From the sequence record PP952733.1: 64,000 nt of DNA. The stretch is one strand, 5' to 3'. The notes below the pieces were generated by a model. The model was not told the DNA's origin. It made no database searches and worked only from the letters and a program-made list of their open reading frames with translations. Made by a program: the position numbers and the translations under genes. Below are positions 46,348-53,260 of the stretch, in pieces. Position 1 is the first letter of the stretch. Every line of letters starts with the position of its first letter. This DNA is from Escherichia phage vB_EcoM_H12.

Positions 46348-48129
46348 ATGACTAAATCACTTTATGCAGTACCAGCAGGTTTAAACGCAGATGCTTACAA
46401 ATCTGGTCACATTTACCAGTATCCTAGTGCAACAGAATACTTGATGTTCAACCTAACACCACGTAGTGACAAATGGTTTAACAGCCCTTTAGCAATTGAC
46501 GGTGTAGTGGCTTTTGGTATTCAACGTTTTGTTAAAGATTACCTGATAGACCACTGGAACGCCACCTTCTTTGAACGTGACAAAAAAGAAGCAATTGATG
46601 AAATCTTAGAAGTCATGAACGGTGTTCTGGGTAAAGATGCTATTGGTCGAGAGCATTGGGAAGCACTCCATGACTTAGGTTATCTACCAGTTGAAGTATA
46701 CGCTGTAGAAGAAGGCACAGTTGTCCCTATGCGTGTACCAATTATTGTCTTCCAGAACACTGTTTCAGGTTTCCATTGGGTAGCGGGGTATCTTGAAGAT
46801 GCTTTCTCTGCTGAGATTTGGAAGGCTTGTACCATTGCAACTATTGCATTGCACTACAAACGTATCTGTAAGAAGTGGGCTGACCTTACTTGTGACAACG
46901 ACTTGCATTTACCTTATCAGTGCCATGACTTTGCTATGCGTGGTATGTCTGGCTTTACTGATGACGCATTTAACGCTGTAGGTCACTTAACCAGCTTTAA
47001 AGGAACTGACAGCTTCCCTGCTGTGTATACAGCTAAACGCATCTATGGACAGTCCTACCCAATCTCTGATATTGGTAGTTCTGTACCAGCCACTGAACAC
47101 TCTGTAATGTGTGCAAACATTGCTTGGGAAGGTGGTAATGAGTTGATTGAAGAAGAAAGACGCTTTAAAGGTGAGTTACAAACCTTCCGTCGTTTCTTAA
47201 CAGAAACTTACCCAACTGGCATTGCAAGTGTTGTTTCAGATACTTATAACTTCTGGAGAACTGTATCAGTTATATTACCAGAACTTCGTAAAGAGATTAT
47301 GGAACGTGATGGCAAACTGGTAATTCGTCCTGACTCTGGAGACCCTGTACATATTGTCACAGGCTATAAAGCAATCCACTTAGAGTGTGCTAAAAAGGCT
47401 TATTACGAACACCTAAGCAAGCTGGAAGCCAGCGACACAATGTTGAATGCTGTTCTGAACATGAAGCTTGAAAACATCAATTATGGTATTGCTGGATGGC
47501 TATTGTCAGAAGGCTACGAAATGGTTGTTGACAGAGAAGACTTTGAAGTTGCTGATACAGTGCTGTTGAAAAATGCTTATATGGTTGGTTCTGCAAACGT
47601 TGTAACACGTCCTGTAGCGGAGATTGATGGAGCTATCAAGACACTGTATAACATCTTTGGAGGAACTATCAACTCTAAAGGTTTTAAAGTACTGGATGAG
47701 CATATCGGACTTATTTATGGTGACTCTATCACGTTGGAACGTGCAAACGAAATACTGAAGCGTTTGTATGAAATGGGTTTTGCAAGCTCTAACGTAGTGT
47801 TTGGTGTAGGTTCTTATACTTACCAGTACATGACTCGTGATACCTTTGCATTTGCTGTCAAAGCAACTCTTGCAAGCATTGGTGGTAAAGAGATTATGCT
47901 TGCAAAAGACCCTAAAACAGATAGCGGTGTTAAGAAGTCTGCTTTTGGTGGTGTAGCACCTATGTGGGATGGTGATAATCTGAAAGCTGTAGATGGCTAT
48001 GGATTCCAGAGCTTTGCAGATGTGCTAGAGCATCCAGCTTGTGCTTTACGTTTAGTCTTTAGCGACTCTGAGCAGTTCGGTTACACAACTCTTGGTGATA
48101 TTCGAAATAATATTGACAAGCAGCTTTAA
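46348..48129 (+). CDS. nadV: nicotinamide phosphoribosyltransferase family protein (Nampt-like; candidate Namat)
   Basis: Matches Nampt along its length as recalled (DAYKSGH, HDFAMRG, FKGTDS, SVPATEHS, IRPDSGDP). Confidence 0.9.
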   Translation: MTKSLYAVPAGLNADAYKSGHIYQYPSATEYLMFNLTPRSDKWFNSPLAIDGVVAFGIQRFVKDYLIDHWNATFFERDKKEAIDEILEVMNGVLGKDAIGREHWEALHDLGYLPVEVYAVEEGTVVPMRVPIIVFQNTVSGFHWVAGYLEDAFSAEIWKACTIATIALHYKRICKKWADLTCDNDLHLPYQCHDFAMRGMSGFTDDAFNAVGHLTSFKGTDSFPAVYTAKRIYGQSYPISDIGSSVPATEHSVMCANIAWEGGNELIEEERRFKGELQTFRRFLTETYPTGIASVVSDTYNFWRTVSVILPELRKEIMERDGKLVIRPDSGDPVHIVTGYKAIHLECAKKAYYEHLSKLEASDTMLNAVLNMKLENINYGIAGWLLSEGYEMVVDREDFEVADTVLLKNAYMVGSANVVTRPVAEIDGAIKTLYNIFGGTINSKGFKVLDEHIGLIYGDSITLERANEILKRLYEMGFASSNVVFGVGSYTYQYMTRDTFAFAVKATLASIGGKEIMLAKDPKTDSGVKKSAFGGVAPMWDGDNLKAVDGYGFQSFADVLEHPACALRLVFSDSEQFGYTTLGDIRNNIDKQL

Positions 48130-48144
48130 AAGTATATGATAAGA

Positions 48145-48166
48145 GGCTCCTACGGGAGCCTTTTTA
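48145..48166 (+). terminator. intrinsic terminator
   Basis: GGCTCC-TACG-GGAGCC then TTTTT. Confidence 0.65.
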
Positions 48167-48527: not shown

Positions 48528-48868
48528 AAATTATGAAAATCAAAGAAATGAACATCAACATTGTCTTAGAAGAACGCTGGGAGAACATCAAGAAGCCTGA
48601 AAATGGTCATAAGTTCCTCAACAAAATCTTAGTAGCAGCTAAAGAAGAACTGACTGGCAAGGTTGCAGCAGCAATCACAATAAAGGTGTGTGTAAAAGGT
48701 CTTCCAGACAATCACCAATTTGCACTTGACGAGTTTAAAGAGAGCTTCTACAATCCAAACAAACAGATGCTTGAAAGTAACTTTGCAGTGTCTACAAGTA
48801 TCGTCCATGACAGAAGCTTTATCCTTTACAAGAATATGAGAGGTGAGTCATGCAAGCATATTGGATAG
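48521..48868 (+). CDS. hypothetical protein
   Basis: 115 aa ORF. Confidence 0.35.
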   Translation: MVKIMKIKEMNINIVLEERWENIKKPENGHKFLNKILVAAKEELTGKVAAAITIKVCVKGLPDNHQFALDEFKESFYNPNKQMLESNFAVSTSIVHDRSFILYKNMRGESCKHIG

Positions 48869-49026
48869 AAATTTTACTGTCACTTGGTAGTGTAGCAGTA
48901 TTTGTTTACCTTCTTTGCAAGTACTATGCAGAGCACAAAAAATGTGACTTCTGTGACGGAGAAGGCTATACAAGAGCAGGTTGTTGCCCTATGTGTGGTG
49001 GTTCTGGTAAAATGTTTAATAAGTAA
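48850..49026 (+). CDS. small membrane-anchored zinc-ribbon protein (58 aa; below track cutoff)
   Basis: ATG at 48850; N-terminal TM helix then CDFCDG ... CCPMCGG. Confidence 0.3.
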   Translation: MQAYWIEILLSLGSVAVFVYLLCKYYAEHKKCDFCDGEGYTRAGCCPMCGGSGKMFNK

Positions 49027-49054
49027 TTTAACAGTAAACTAAGAGGAAAGTATT

Positions 49055-51421
49055 ATGCGCATGGTAAATGACCACGCAGAAGTGATTAAGAGTTCAACTT
49101 CTTTGGAGACGTCTCAAGCACAGATTACAATGACACCTGAAATGTTCAGCCTTTTGAGTTCTGGTGTATATACCTTTAAAGAAAGGGCAGTTATCCGTGA
49201 ACTGTCATGTAACGCAGTAGATGCTCAGAAAGAAGCTGGAAAAGAGAACATCCCGTTCCATGTGCATTTACCTACTCGTTTTGAGCCTTACTTTGAAGTT
49301 CGTGATTTTGGAACTGGATTGACTCATGATAAAGTTATGAGTTTGTATCTAAATTACGGGGCTTCTACGAAGAATGACTCTAATGATTACATTGGTGCAA
49401 TGGGTATCGGTTCAAAATCTCCATTTGCAATCGCTCAGTCATTCACAGTATCTAGCTATGTTGATGGTGTTGTTAATAAGTACTCTGTTTACCTTGAGAA
49501 TGGTATCCCTCAAGTAACTAAGCTGACCACCAACCCAACAAAAGAGCCTAATGGTTTAGCTGTACGTGTAGCAGTTGCTGACCATCGTATTTCAAAGTTC
49601 TTTGAAGAAGCTGGTCATGTATACTCATACTTTGCTGTAAAACCAGAAAGTAACATCGAGTATGACGATGTATTAGCAGATATGAATGTCATTGCCCGTG
49701 AAGAAGGTGTTTATGATGCCATGATTCACAAACAAAGCTGGCGTTCTAGTGGTAACAGGACAGAGTTTAATGTAGTGATGGGTAACATTGCCTACCCTGT
49801 TAATATGGAAGCATTACTTGGTGATGATTTCTTCAAAGTATTGCCAGAATTTTTCCGTAGGAGCGTAGACCTTGTAAACATCTACATGCCTATTGGTTCA
49901 GTTGCTATTGCAGCTTCTCGTGAAGCATTGCAGATGAATGACACGACAAAAAATGTTATCATCGAAGCTACTAAAAAGATAACTGAAGCAATTACAAAGG
50001 ATGTTATCAAGAAAGTTAATAGCCAACCTACACTCATGGATGCTGCACAGGCTTATGCTGAGTTGCGTTTGAACTCACGAGAGATGTTTAATGCTGTGTG
50101 TCCAAAGCTAGAGTGGGGAGGCGTTAAGCTTGATTCTCTGGAAGAAGAATTACTAAACATTCGTCGTGGAATTATCTACGCAGAAGATGGCTCAGTCATC
50201 TATGAACGTGATGGTAAAGGTAATATTAAAGTTGATAGGAATGGAAACAACATCCCTAAAGTAGATTATCTTTATAATCCTGTTGCTTATGTTAAGTTCA
50301 ACTCTTTAGAGAGTAAGATTCGTGCAACATCGCTTTCCTACACTCAAGAGGCAAGTATGTTCAATATCTTTGGCGCAATGCGTAAAAGCCAAATTGAACA
50401 GTTTTTGTTTGTTATCAATGACCGTCGCAATAAAAACGGTACTGAGAAAACTGTAGGACGCAACCAGATTCTGCGTGGTGCATGTCGAGACTATGCCAGC
50501 GAGTCAAGTCTGTTTCACAGATACAATGGTATTGTCTTTGTATTCTCTACTGAGAAAGAGCTAGATGATTTAATCAATCTGCACAAACTTGATAAAAGCT
50601 TGTTAAAGATTGTGAAGATGTCTGATAAGGAACATCATTATCAGCGTAAAGAAGCTGTGAGAGGTGTTGTAAAACTCTGGAAAGCTGTTCCAGCAGAAGG
50701 TGTAGCTTCATACAAAGAGGTGTCAGAAGACTTTGATACAATTGAAGAGCCTCAGCTTTACATCAAGGCAGTCGGTGACACAGTTGATGGTGAATGTTTT
50801 TGCTCATCTCCAGAAGATGTAGCTAAGTCAGTTGCTAATGTTACAGGTAAGACAATCTATGTTTTCCGAAAAGCAAATTGGAAAAAGATACCAGAAGACT
50901 GGATTGAAGTAGATGAGAAGCTCTTGAACGACAGCTTAACTGATGTTCACTGGATTAATCACAACAGGTATATGACACGTATCTATATGAATGGTGTCCT
51001 TGACCTTACAAGCAGTTGGATTATTGCCAGAAACTTTACGTTCAATAACAGGAAGATTTCTCGTGGTTATTGCTATTCACGAGACACAAATAAAACTATC
51101 TTCTTAGAAGGCAATGAAGATGCTGTTGAGGCAATGTTTGGTAAAATCCAATACGTTGCTGCACCGTTTGCATACACTTACACCGTTAGTCGGTTGCAAA
51201 CTTTGAAAGAATGCCTTGACAACGATACAAAGCTGTACAAGAAAATTAAGAAAGCTGGTGACCGTATGGTTATTAAGGTGACAAACTATCTTTTAAAAAG
51301 AAAACAAGAAAACTTCTTGCTTTCTCATTTAGATTGGAATAAAGTGTCACCCATCGAAGTGAGTAAGTTCTTAGGCTTTGATGTGAAGTGTGTTCCAGAA
51401 GGGACTACAATTTACGATTAA
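49055..51421 (+). CDS. rIIA: rIIA-like protein (GHKL-type ATPase domain)
   Basis: 788 aa; N-terminal RELSCNAVDAQ ... VRDFGTGL ... GIGSKSPF matches the T4 rIIA N-terminus as recalled; followed by rIIB-sized gene. Confidence 0.75.
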   Translation: MRMVNDHAEVIKSSTSLETSQAQITMTPEMFSLLSSGVYTFKERAVIRELSCNAVDAQKEAGKENIPFHVHLPTRFEPYFEVRDFGTGLTHDKVMSLYLNYGASTKNDSNDYIGAMGIGSKSPFAIAQSFTVSSYVDGVVNKYSVYLENGIPQVTKLTTNPTKEPNGLAVRVAVADHRISKFFEEAGHVYSYFAVKPESNIEYDDVLADMNVIAREEGVYDAMIHKQSWRSSGNRTEFNVVMGNIAYPVNMEALLGDDFFKVLPEFFRRSVDLVNIYMPIGSVAIAASREALQMNDTTKNVIIEATKKITEAITKDVIKKVNSQPTLMDAAQAYAELRLNSREMFNAVCPKLEWGGVKLDSLEEELLNIRRGIIYAEDGSVIYERDGKGNIKVDRNGNNIPKVDYLYNPVAYVKFNSLESKIRATSLSYTQEASMFNIFGAMRKSQIEQFLFVINDRRNKNGTEKTVGRNQILRGACRDYASESSLFHRYNGIVFVFSTEKELDDLINLHKLDKSLLKIVKMSDKEHHYQRKEAVRGVVKLWKAVPAEGVASYKEVSEDFDTIEEPQLYIKAVGDTVDGECFCSSPEDVAKSVANVTGKTIYVFRKANWKKIPEDWIEVDEKLLNDSLTDVHWINHNRYMTRIYMNGVLDLTSSWIIARNFTFNNRKISRGYCYSRDTNKTIFLEGNEDAVEAMFGKIQYVAAPFAYTYTVSRLQTLKECLDNDTKLYKKIKKAGDRMVIKVTNYLLKRKQENFLLSHLDWNKVSPIEVSKFLGFDVKCVPEGTTIYD

Positions 51422-51426
51422 AGTGT

Positions 51427-51456
51427 TTGACAAGGGGCTTTGAAGCCCCTTAGAAT
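51427..51456 (+). promoter_or_regulatory. sigma70-like promoter with hairpin in the spacer
   Basis: TTGACA, 17-18 nt spacer that is itself GGGGCTTTGAAGCCCC, then TAGAAT. Confidence 0.5.
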
Positions 51457-51501
51457 AACCTCACAAAAATGATTTATTAACTAACAAGAGAGAGTAATAA
51501 G

Positions 51502-52611
51502 ATGACTACTAAAACTAAAGCACAGATTGACGCAGAAATCTACAAACTGGTTAAAGAAGGTAAGCTGACTAAAACAGCTATTGCACAGAAGTTCAATACT
51601 TCAACCCGTTCAGTCGGTCGTGCTGTAGAGCGTCATGAAGCAACCTTAAAAGGTAAGAAAAAGGTAGCTTCTAAACCAGTTAAGAAGACTCTAAAGCAAG
51701 TTGCTAAGTCAGTTAAAAAGAAAGCTGGCAAACCAGTTGAAAAGGTTGTTAAAGAGGCTGTACAGAAAGCTCCAGTAAATAAACTGCATGAAGCTATGCA
51801 GAAAGATGACAAGATTGAGTATATGATTACTGGTGACTCTGTAATTATGACTTACGGTTCAGAGTCTGAAATTGTTGAGTCTACTCATCCGAACTATCAA
51901 GAAATTGTAGTTCATGTTGTGAAAGGTGAGTTCAAGAAAGCATTTGAACTGATGAACATTCGTAAGTCTATCGAAAACTTCACTCAGGGTGCTATCACAA
52001 TCAAAGGTGACAAGTTATTCTACGGTGCTGTTGAGATGCGTTCTACTCTGGTTGACCGTATTCTTCACATGATGAAGACTGGTGATAAAGGCTTTGAACG
52101 ACTTGTAATGTTCTTCGAAAAACTGATGGAAAACCCATCTAAAGACTCTGTAGAACAGCTTTGGGGATTTGTATCTCACCTTGATGTTGAAATTGATGAA
52201 GAAGGCTACATCATTGGTTGGAAGAAAGTCTCTACTCGTGAAGGCAAGTTGGTTGACTCCCACACCTACAAAGTACCTAATGATTTGGGTAACATTGTAG
52301 AAATGCCACGTTGGATGGTTGATAACAACCGTAACGTAACTTGCTCTCAGGGTCTTCATGTTGGTGCTTGGGATTATGTTCGTTGCTTCTCAGGTGATAC
52401 AATCCTGAAGGTTCGTGTCCATCCACGAGATGTTGTATCTGTTCCGACTGATTACAACGATATGAAGATGCGTTCATCCCGTTATGAAGTTGCAGCAATC
52501 GTTGATAATCAACGTAAAGTGTTGAAAGCATGGGACGGTAAGACTGAAGCTTTGCATGTCATCGTTGGCACTGCTGGTGAACTAATCTCCCAACGTAAAC
52601 GTGAAATCTAA
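51502..52611 (+). CDS. rIIB: rIIB-like protein
   Basis: 369 aa; Lys-rich N-terminal region; directly downstream of rIIA-like gene. Confidence 0.5.
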   Translation: MTTKTKAQIDAEIYKLVKEGKLTKTAIAQKFNTSTRSVGRAVERHEATLKGKKKVASKPVKKTLKQVAKSVKKKAGKPVEKVVKEAVQKAPVNKLHEAMQKDDKIEYMITGDSVIMTYGSESEIVESTHPNYQEIVVHVVKGEFKKAFELMNIRKSIENFTQGAITIKGDKLFYGAVEMRSTLVDRILHMMKTGDKGFERLVMFFEKLMENPSKDSVEQLWGFVSHLDVEIDEEGYIIGWKKVSTREGKLVDSHTYKVPNDLGNIVEMPRWMVDNNRNVTCSQGLHVGAWDYVRCFSGDTILKVRVHPRDVVSVPTDYNDMKMRSSRYEVAAIVDNQRKVLKAWDGKTEALHVIVGTAGELISQRKREI

Positions 52612-52627
52612 TAAGTAATTTCTTAAA

Positions 52628-52650
52628 AGGCTGCTTCGGCGGCCTTTTTT
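52628..52650 (+). terminator. intrinsic terminator after rIIB
   Basis: GGCTGC-TTCG-GCGGCC then TTTTTT. Confidence 0.6.
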
Positions 52651-52711
52651 ATTTGTATTTTGTGCAGAGTGCTGTATAATTGTGGTCACGATAAACTAAA
52701 CAGGAGAACCA

Positions 52712-53260
52712 ATGAAGAAGTTGATTCTAGGTTTGTGCTTAATGTTTACAGCACACTTATCTTATGCAGTTGACTGCCCAGAGCTATCAATTAGCCAAAA
52801 AGTAAACATGTTAAAAGCTTACCAGTATGGTGAGAATAATATGGGTAAAGGTTGGGGTATCACTCTAGCTGCTATAGCCTTACAAGAGTCAGAGTTAGGT
52901 CTGAATGTAGAGAATAAAAAGACACATGACTATGGTATTTTCCAGAATCACTTGAAGACTGTTGTAAAGCGTAACAAAATTAGTCCTAATGTGGCTAAAA
53001 AGAAACTCTTAAAAGATTTTGACTATGCCGCAAAAGAAACACACAAAGAGCTTGAGTTTTGGACGAAGGTACATGGTCAACCAAAGTCAAAGAAGACTTT
53101 ACAAAAAGTTTTAGCGTCATATAATGCTGGGTATTCGTACAAAATCCCTAAAGCTAAGAAATACTCTCAAGATGTCTACAACAATATGAAAGTTATTGCT
53201 CAATGTGAATTTGCAACAAACATTTCTAAGGTAAACCATGAAAAAATTAAGAAAGTCTGA
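52712..53260 (+). CDS. secreted lytic transglycosylase (candidate endolysin)
   Basis: Sec-type signal peptide (cleavage near SYA/VD); AIALQESELG resembles the catalytic Glu-Ser motif of SLT-type transglycosylases. Confidence 0.6.
   Translation: MKKLILGLCLMFTAHLSYAVDCPELSISQKVNMLKAYQYGENNMGKGWGITLAAIALQESELGLNVENKKTHDYGIFQNHLKTVVKRNKISPNVAKKKLLKDFDYAAKETHKELEFWTKVHGQPKSKKTLQKVLASYNAGYSYKIPKAKKYSQDVYNNMKVIAQCEFATNISKVNHEKIKKV

Follow-up and report, generated by a model that had tools for sequence, protein, structure and literature searches.

The rIIA–rIIB Gene Pair of the Felix-O1-Type Phage vB_EcoM_H12: A Very Probable Counter-Defense Module with a Promoter-Like Site and Hairpin at the Gene Junction

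Results

This study concerns two adjacent genes, rIIA and rIIB, in a 64,000-nt stretch (the window) of the genome of Escherichia phage vB_EcoM_H12 (PP952733.1). Both are plus-strand open reading frames (ORFs) with an ATG start, rIIA at 49055..51421 (788 amino acids, aa) and rIIB at 51502..52611 (369 aa), in agreement with the positions and lengths given in a first-pass annotation of this DNA. They share one orientation, are separated by 80 nt and are followed by a single canonical terminator at the end of the pair. A purine-rich ribosome-binding site read from the sequence precedes each start codon by 7 nt on the plus strand (AAGAGGA at 49041..49047 for rIIA and AAGAGAGAG at 51486..51494 for rIIB). 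The canonical intrinsic terminator 3’ of rIIB was returned by the terminator scan (52625..52654, plus strand) and consists of a 10-bp stem with a TTCG loop (hairpin part 52625–52648; −14.3 kcal/mol) and a subsequent T-tract; Table 2 of the Felix O1 genome paper (PMC3185647) gives the same sequence for its terminator ‘t2’.

As database labels can spread from record to record, we compared the two window proteins directly with T4’s own proteins (NC_000866; rIIA NP_049616, rIIB NP_049889). BLASTP aligned aa 24–317 of the window rIIA with T4 rIIA at 32% identity (E = 4e-37) and aa 11–339 of the window rIIB, that is, near full length, with T4 rIIB at 37% identity (E = 4e-61). The profile search, in which a lack of similarity would, according to the first-pass annotation, have refuted its proposal of an rIIA/rIIB-like pair, gave significant matches of rIIA to phrog_612 (RIIA; E = 2.9e-189, with aa 1–770 falling on profile positions 1–716 of 725) and of rIIB to phrog_609 (RIIB; E = 4.6e-89), and the best PHROG families of T4 rIIA (E = 9e-250) and T4 rIIB are likewise phrog_612 and phrog_609. 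By these comparisons, the window ORFs are true homologs of T4 rIIA and rIIB, and the proposed identity of the pair is borne out. The close resemblance to T4 rIIA that had also been claimed holds for the N-terminal third of the protein with its GHKL signature; the C-terminal two-thirds gave no pairwise alignment to T4, their similarity being confined to the profile level. The description of the second gene as ‘rIIB-sized’ was approximate, since the protein has 369 aa versus 312 aa in T4 and its surplus resides chiefly in a lysine-rich linker and a C-terminal tail. As a side observation, the phrog_609 profile (1055 positions) is matched by rIIA N-termini at positions 19–310 and by rIIB at positions 751–1049, and is therefore either derived in part from fused rIIA–rIIB proteins or a composite cluster.

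The 3.7-kb region is 98.9% identical to that of Escherichia phage vB_EcoM_D4 and matches 276 phage records at the DNA level, 210 of which cover at least 80% of it. Nearly all of these records are Felix-O1-like phages of Escherichia, Salmonella, Shigella and Citrobacter, in which annotation as rIIA/rIIB is routine; the Felix O1 genome is even conventionally opened at rIIA (PMC3185647). Judged by sequence, then, the locus is the Felixounavirus ortholog of the T4 rIIA–rIIB module. Two records stand apart by their names, GU169904 (Staphylococcus phage SA1) and MG065664 (Campylobacter phage A132), whose rIIA–rIIB junctions are 93–96% identical to the window, which suggests contaminating or mislabeled Felixounavirus sequence. 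Window and T4 have in common the gene order and orientation, the two PHROG families, the N-terminal GHKL domain of rIIA, the N-terminal helix-turn-helix (HTH) and conserved C-terminal domain of rIIB, and the placement of the pair, itself non-structural, in the nucleotide-metabolism part of the genome. They differ in that sequence identity is just 32% (rIIA) and 37% (rIIB), in the 57 additional residues of the window rIIB with its disordered lysine-rich linker, in the intergenic region (80 nt with a promoter-like site and a hairpin in the window versus 11 nt in T4), and in the gene upstream of rIIA, which in the window has no similarity to rIIA.1.

The rII genes of T4 are needed to escape RexAB-mediated exclusion in lambda lysogens, and a similar anti-exclusion role had been put forward for the pair studied here. 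The closest ortholog with functional data is that of Bas63 (JohannRWettstein, MZ501086), a phage of the same genus with the same gene order as the window (PRPP synthetase, NAMPT, three small ORFs, rIIA, rIIB, a phrog_600 protein and polynucleotide kinase), whose rIIA (g84) is 98% and whose rIIB (g85) is 84% identical to the respective window protein. Deletion of Bas63 g84 or g85 lowered plating 1e4- to 1e5-fold on qatABCD hosts, and complementation restored it (PhageMaP, bioRxiv 10.1101/2024.10.10.617714). In SUSP1 (NC_028808; gp081/gp082), which belongs to the same subfamily, Ounavirinae, and shares both the synteny and the intergenic TTGACA-hairpin-TAGAAT arrangement (rIIA 63% and rIIB 80% identical to the window; spacer of 17 nt, loop GAAA), knock-down of rIIA or rIIB by CRISPRi-ART lowered plating on lambda RexAB hosts only; SUSP1 is one of five phages for which rIIA/rIIB knock-down was harmless on plain E. 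coli and harmful in the presence of lambda RexAB (PMC11879866). For T4 itself, transposon insertions in rII were depleted on rexAB hosts only (bioRxiv 10.1101/2025.11.20.689424). RIIB can also come at a cost: a gasdermin system from Lysobacter is triggered by T6 RIIB, which is toxic on its own (bioRxiv 10.1101/2023.05.28.542683).

The anti-exclusion role is thus well supported, because close orthologs (Bas63, SUSP1) as well as T4 show a defense-dependent need for the two genes. By analogy with these orthologs, the window pair is very probably a non-structural, conditionally required counter-defense module directed against abortive infection systems (lambda RexAB, QatABCD). The pair is in this sense already known, being routinely annotated and experimentally characterized in close relatives, and the label ‘lysis inhibitor’ is historical. 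Two points weigh against too direct a transfer of function. The anti-exclusion activity of the pair is known from orthologs alone, and the window rIIB diverges by 16% from the tested Bas63 protein, so that its defense specificity could differ; Bas63 rIIB is a distinct allele, most of whose differences fall in the linker and the C-terminal tail. Viewed across the two relatives, the pair is a mosaic, with rIIA closer than rIIB to Bas63 (98% versus 84%) and the order reversed for SUSP1 (63% versus 80%). Apparently, rIIB has undergone allele exchange on its own, without rIIA, and the breakpoint would lie near the conserved intergenic element. We also note that the PhageMaP preprint (10.1101/2024.10.10.617714) states a homology of ‘>80%’ between Bas63 g84/g85 and T4 RIIA/B, versus 32% and 37% between the window proteins and those of T4.

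The domain content of the two proteins was analyzed as well. In rIIA, an Hsp90-like GHKL (Bergerat-fold) ATPase domain occupies aa 30–176 (49142..49582, plus strand), as delineated by motifs, hhalign, profiles and Foldseek. In an alignment of T4 rIIA and 52 homologs, no or almost no variation is seen in the motifs E49-x3-N53-x2-D56, D84-x-G86-x-G88 and G114-x2-G117-x-G119-x-K121, which upholds the N-terminal GHKL-type signature noted in the first-pass annotation; 19 of these 53 sequences individually match PF13589. Comparison with E. coli HtpG by hhalign (probability 94.7%, E = 5.7e-8, aa 30–176) places R48-E49-L-S-C-N53 of rIIA onto the Hsp90 ‘RELISN’ motif, the site of the catalytic Glu and the Mg-binding Asn in Hsp90. 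As assigned by motif, the ATPase residues of rIIA are intact, namely E49 (catalytic Glu), N53 (Mg-binding Asn), D84 (adenine-binding Asp) and the glycine lid. The rIIA family profile retrieved TRAP1, the mitochondrial Hsp90, from the PDB sequences (E = 6e-5), where a search with the single sequence returned nothing, and the only match from PADLOC was to the shared GHKL region of TmtA. In the AlphaFold2 (AF2) model of rIIA (mean predicted local distance difference test score, pLDDT, 85.7), Foldseek found the Hsp90 family in all 50 of the PDB matches listed, with E-values down to 9e-15 over alignments of about 600 columns and TM-scores of about 0.3. By fold and motifs, rIIA is an Hsp90-like GHKL ATPase, as already published by Iyer et al. 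2021 (PMC7824862), who described an N-terminal GHKL ATPase domain and a variable C-terminus. What speaks against this assignment is the Pfam search of rIIA, which gave no significant family and left the HATPase families below threshold; T4 rIIA, too, is sub-threshold for PF13589.

The likeness to Hsp90 proteins (HtpG, TRAP1, GRP94) comprises the Bergerat ATP-binding fold and the motifs ‘LYSxK...RELxxNxxD’, ‘DxGxG’ and ‘GxxGxG’ of the N-domain. Membership of rIIA in the Hsp90 family as such was considered and rejected: the NCBIfam HSP90 model (NF010683) matches aa 30–134 alone (E = 2.6e-11) and scores 42.7 bits against a cut-off of 455, and both this alignment and that of hhalign stay within the N-domain. 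The ‘SRE’ motif residue R289 of rIIA is invariant; the hhalign alignment to Hsp90 ends at the N-domain, short of the middle-domain catalytic arginine. With sequence alignment ending after the N-domain and TM-scores as low as those above, rIIA is likened to the Hsp90 chaperones by fold, and chaperone activity is not implied.

For rIIB, the AF2 model (mean pLDDT 84.5) divides the protein into three parts: an N-terminal HTH (aa 6–51; 51517..51654), modeled as a three-helix bundle with a pLDDT of about 95, a disordered lysine-rich linker (aa 53–90; 51658..51771) with pLDDT below 50, and a conserved, structured C-terminal region (aa 94–369; 51781..52608), all on the plus strand. The HTH is confident and resembles sigma region 4 as well as the DeoR and LuxR DNA-binding domains. 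Between aa 50 and 100, there are 17 K/R versus 3 D/E residues, and the linker is mostly absent from T4 rIIB. The C-terminal region carries the invariant residues of the family (F204, N211, G235, K241, R270, C281, G284, H286 and P308), and no solved structural relative of it was found. Single-sequence search of rIIB against the PDB sequences returned noise only, and the Pfam search gave no significant family with a model set that did not contain PF26926; this family is carried by P0121, a cluster representative 97% identical to the window rIIB. The model gives rIIB a C-terminal domain specific to its family, joined to the HTH by the basic disordered linker. No transmembrane helix is predicted in rIIA or rIIB, the maximum 19-residue hydropathy being 1.29 and 0.69, respectively.

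The 80 nt between the genes harbor a sigma-70-type promoter-like site (51427..51456, plus strand) with a −35 element TTGACA (51427–51432), an 18-nt spacer and a −10 element TAGAAT (51451–51456). It matches the sigma-70 consensus at 11 of 12 positions, predicts a transcription start near 51462–51465 and represents a pattern that occurs three times in the 64 kb versus 0.56 times expected. Its spacer is taken up by a GC-rich hairpin (51432..51451, plus strand) with a perfect 8-bp stem of AAGGGGCT and AGCCCCTT (51432–51439 and 51444–51451) and the loop TTGA, which begins 11 nt past the rIIA stop codon and has a predicted stability of −13.3 kcal/mol (z = −3.5). The first-pass annotation had described this hairpin-in-spacer site correctly, its term ‘promoter’ being a sequence-based inference. 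The sequence that follows the hairpin is TTAGAATAA, which contains no U-tract (defined as 5 or more T within 8 nt), and the hairpin was not listed by the terminator scan; it is therefore not a canonical terminator. Among 213 promoter-like sites in the window, this is the sole one with a strong spacer hairpin (runner-up −5.0 kcal/mol). We accordingly dismissed the idea that promoters with a spacer hairpin recur as a class in this phage.

Felixounavirus, Mooglevirus and Suspvirus have the same two hexamers, but the 30 nt that follow are just 37–60% identical. In Mooglevirus and Suspvirus, the 6-bp core stem GGGGCT/AGCCCC is unchanged, the loop is GAAA and one base has been lost, resulting in a 17-nt spacer. 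Kolesnikvirus carries another hairpin at the same place (GGGCTG-GAAA-CAGCCC, −12.6 kcal/mol) without promoter hexamers, for which reason we consider the hairpin to be older than the hexamers.

Among the neighboring genes, the segment 45400–48129 encodes a phosphoribosyl pyrophosphate (PRPP) synthetase (ribose-phosphate pyrophosphokinase), directly followed by a nicotinamide phosphoribosyltransferase (NAMPT) gene (phrog_448, E = 2.4e-201); together they are recognizable as an NAD+ salvage pair. In D4 and SUSP1, an HNH endonuclease gene lies between the two, whereas the window has none there. The Bas63 orthologs, g79 and g80, counter Sir2-HerA (10.1101/2024.10.10.617714), which by analogy would place two counter-defense modules within 7 kb. 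A second overlap of promoter and terminator elements is found at 48113–48164, where TTGACA-16-TATGAT (11/12) lies immediately next to the hairpin of the terminator that follows the NAMPT gene; transcription from this site would begin within the terminator’s 5’ arm and would therefore escape termination. Directly 5’ of rIIA, a 58-aa ORF (48850–49026; phrog_3931) combines an N-terminal transmembrane helix with a C-terminal CxxC...CxxC zinc-ribbon-like motif and is kept at this place in Bas63 (bas63_0083) and SUSP1 (agp080); when considered as a counterpart of T4 rIIA.1, it showed no similarity. On the other side, a perfect TATAAT (52675–52680) is located 27 nt beyond the rIIB terminator, with the T-tract of the latter at the expected −35 place, and 52625–52680 may thus couple the terminator to a promoter of the gene that comes next, at 52712. 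Neither Rfam nor a tRNA scan returned any hit in the window.

Discussion

How the rII proteins might act can be outlined from their domains, at a tentative level. An intact Hsp90-like ATPase, an HTH with an adjoining basic linker and the lack of transmembrane segments are the reason why we conceive rIIA and rIIB as parts of a single complex, ATP-driven and either soluble or peripheral. Its point of action might be upstream of the killing effector, where it would mask or remodel the infection signal or the sensor, possibly at DNA or a nucleoprotein contacted through the HTH and the basic linker of rIIB; the complex would not be an integral membrane plug and would not physically seal the membrane. 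We hold this proposal at somewhat less than even confidence, as action upstream of the effector, and possibly at DNA, is read from domain content only, and T4 rII proteins are classically membrane-associated according to notes in T4 database records. One alternative takes the historical name at face value, with the pair directly inhibiting lysis by delaying the holin-mediated step instead of acting against host defense. In line with it, the database product is called ‘RIIA/RIIB lysis inhibitor’ and PHROG files it under ‘lysis’; T4 r mutants were historically defined by rapid lysis (T4 record notes), and a spanin pair is found about 2 kb downstream. However, the T4 record’s note itself traces the rapid lysis back to ‘effects of specific prophage’ genes, and loss of rII in T4, SUSP1, N4, EdH4, MM02 and Bas63 had no effect without a defense system and a strong one in its presence. 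Since, in addition, neither protein has a transmembrane segment or a holin/antiholin feature and the domains found are a GHKL ATPase and an HTH, we regard direct lysis inhibition as highly improbable. Rather unlikely, though clearly less so, is that rIIB functions chiefly in tuning phage transcription, as a DNA-binding factor with an ATP-driven partner in rIIA, such that escape from Rex or Qat results indirectly from altered gene expression; the palindrome in the spacer of the rIIB promoter-like site could then be rIIB’s own operator. The confident N-terminal HTH with its likeness to sigma region 4, DeoR and LuxR, the basic disordered linker and the conserved perfect palindrome between the −35 and −10 elements agree with such a function, and rIIB was classed as a specific transcription factor by Iyer et al. 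2021 (PMC7824862). A heading in the results section of the preprint 10.64898/2026.08.19.745784 also refers to terminator palindromes that double as transcription-factor sites. On the other hand, the literature searched yielded no data on DNA binding or transcriptional effects of any rIIB, and Kolesnikvirus relatives keep rIIB yet have a different palindrome with no promoter hexamers there. Moreover, direct activity at the protein level fits at least as well with RIIB alone being toxic and triggering gasdermin (10.1101/2023.05.28.542683).

The intergenic element is probably an internal rIIB promoter that overlaps a leaky terminator or an RNA-stabilizing stem-loop of the rIIA transcript. According to this model, rIIA would be expressed by read-through from upstream early genes, the stem-loop after rIIA would stabilize or partly end the rIIA transcript, and the overlapping TTGACA-N18-TAGAAT would restart transcription for rIIB, thereby uncoupling the amounts of the two proteins. 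Several points weigh against it. The three genera that share the stem show no variation in it, and with no compensatory substitutions, covariation is uninformative; our literature search found no transcript maps or transcript-end data for Felixounavirus. The Felix O1 genome paper lists no promoter at the rIIA–rIIB junction (PMC3185647), an omission that would also suit a simpler scenario, in which the hairpin is merely a weak or leaky terminator or a stabilizer of the rIIA mRNA 3’-end, the hexamers are not a working promoter and rIIB is expressed by read-through. The location of the hairpin 11 nt past the rIIA stop, which is the usual position of a terminator, its stability close to that of the real rIIB terminator (−13.3 versus −14.3 kcal/mol) and its conservation to a greater depth than that of the hexamers, as seen with Kolesnikvirus, can all be accommodated by this scenario. 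It is nevertheless doubtful in view of the 11/12 consensus match, of hexamers fully conserved in three genera next to 30 nt of only 37–60% identity, and of the shift from an 18- to a 17-nt spacer by a 1-nt deletion that left both hexamers intact; with only TT after the hairpin and no U-tract, efficient intrinsic termination is unlikely as well. A further idea, to which we assign a very low probability, is that the palindrome serves two purposes, as a leaky U-tract-less terminator or stabilizer on RNA and as an operator for the rIIB HTH on DNA, with rIIB autoregulation setting the rIIA:rIIB ratio. If true, this could matter, considering that RIIB alone is toxic and can trigger other defense systems.

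The putative internal promoter with its overlapping stem-loop is reminiscent of the promoter-coupled terminators described by Fletcher et al. 2026 (10.64898/2026.08.19.745784), where a stem-loop of the upstream transcript overlaps the promoter of the next co-oriented, functionally related gene, as is proposed here. The predicted distance of about 5–12 nt between 3’ end and start in the window falls within the commonest range of that study. In their design, the stem-loop supplies the −35 element and the T-tract fills the spacer, whereas in the window the whole hairpin is located inside the spacer between separate consensus hexamers and there is no T-tract.

Conclusions

Our analysis adds nothing new on how rII proteins work, and restates their domain content as a base for any mechanism. 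Its main value is correct annotation, marking two accessory genes of a Felix-O1-type coliphage as a counter-defense module. Such a module influences which lysogenic or defense-carrying strains the phage can kill, and this is of relevance as phages of this kind are used against E. coli O157 and Salmonella.

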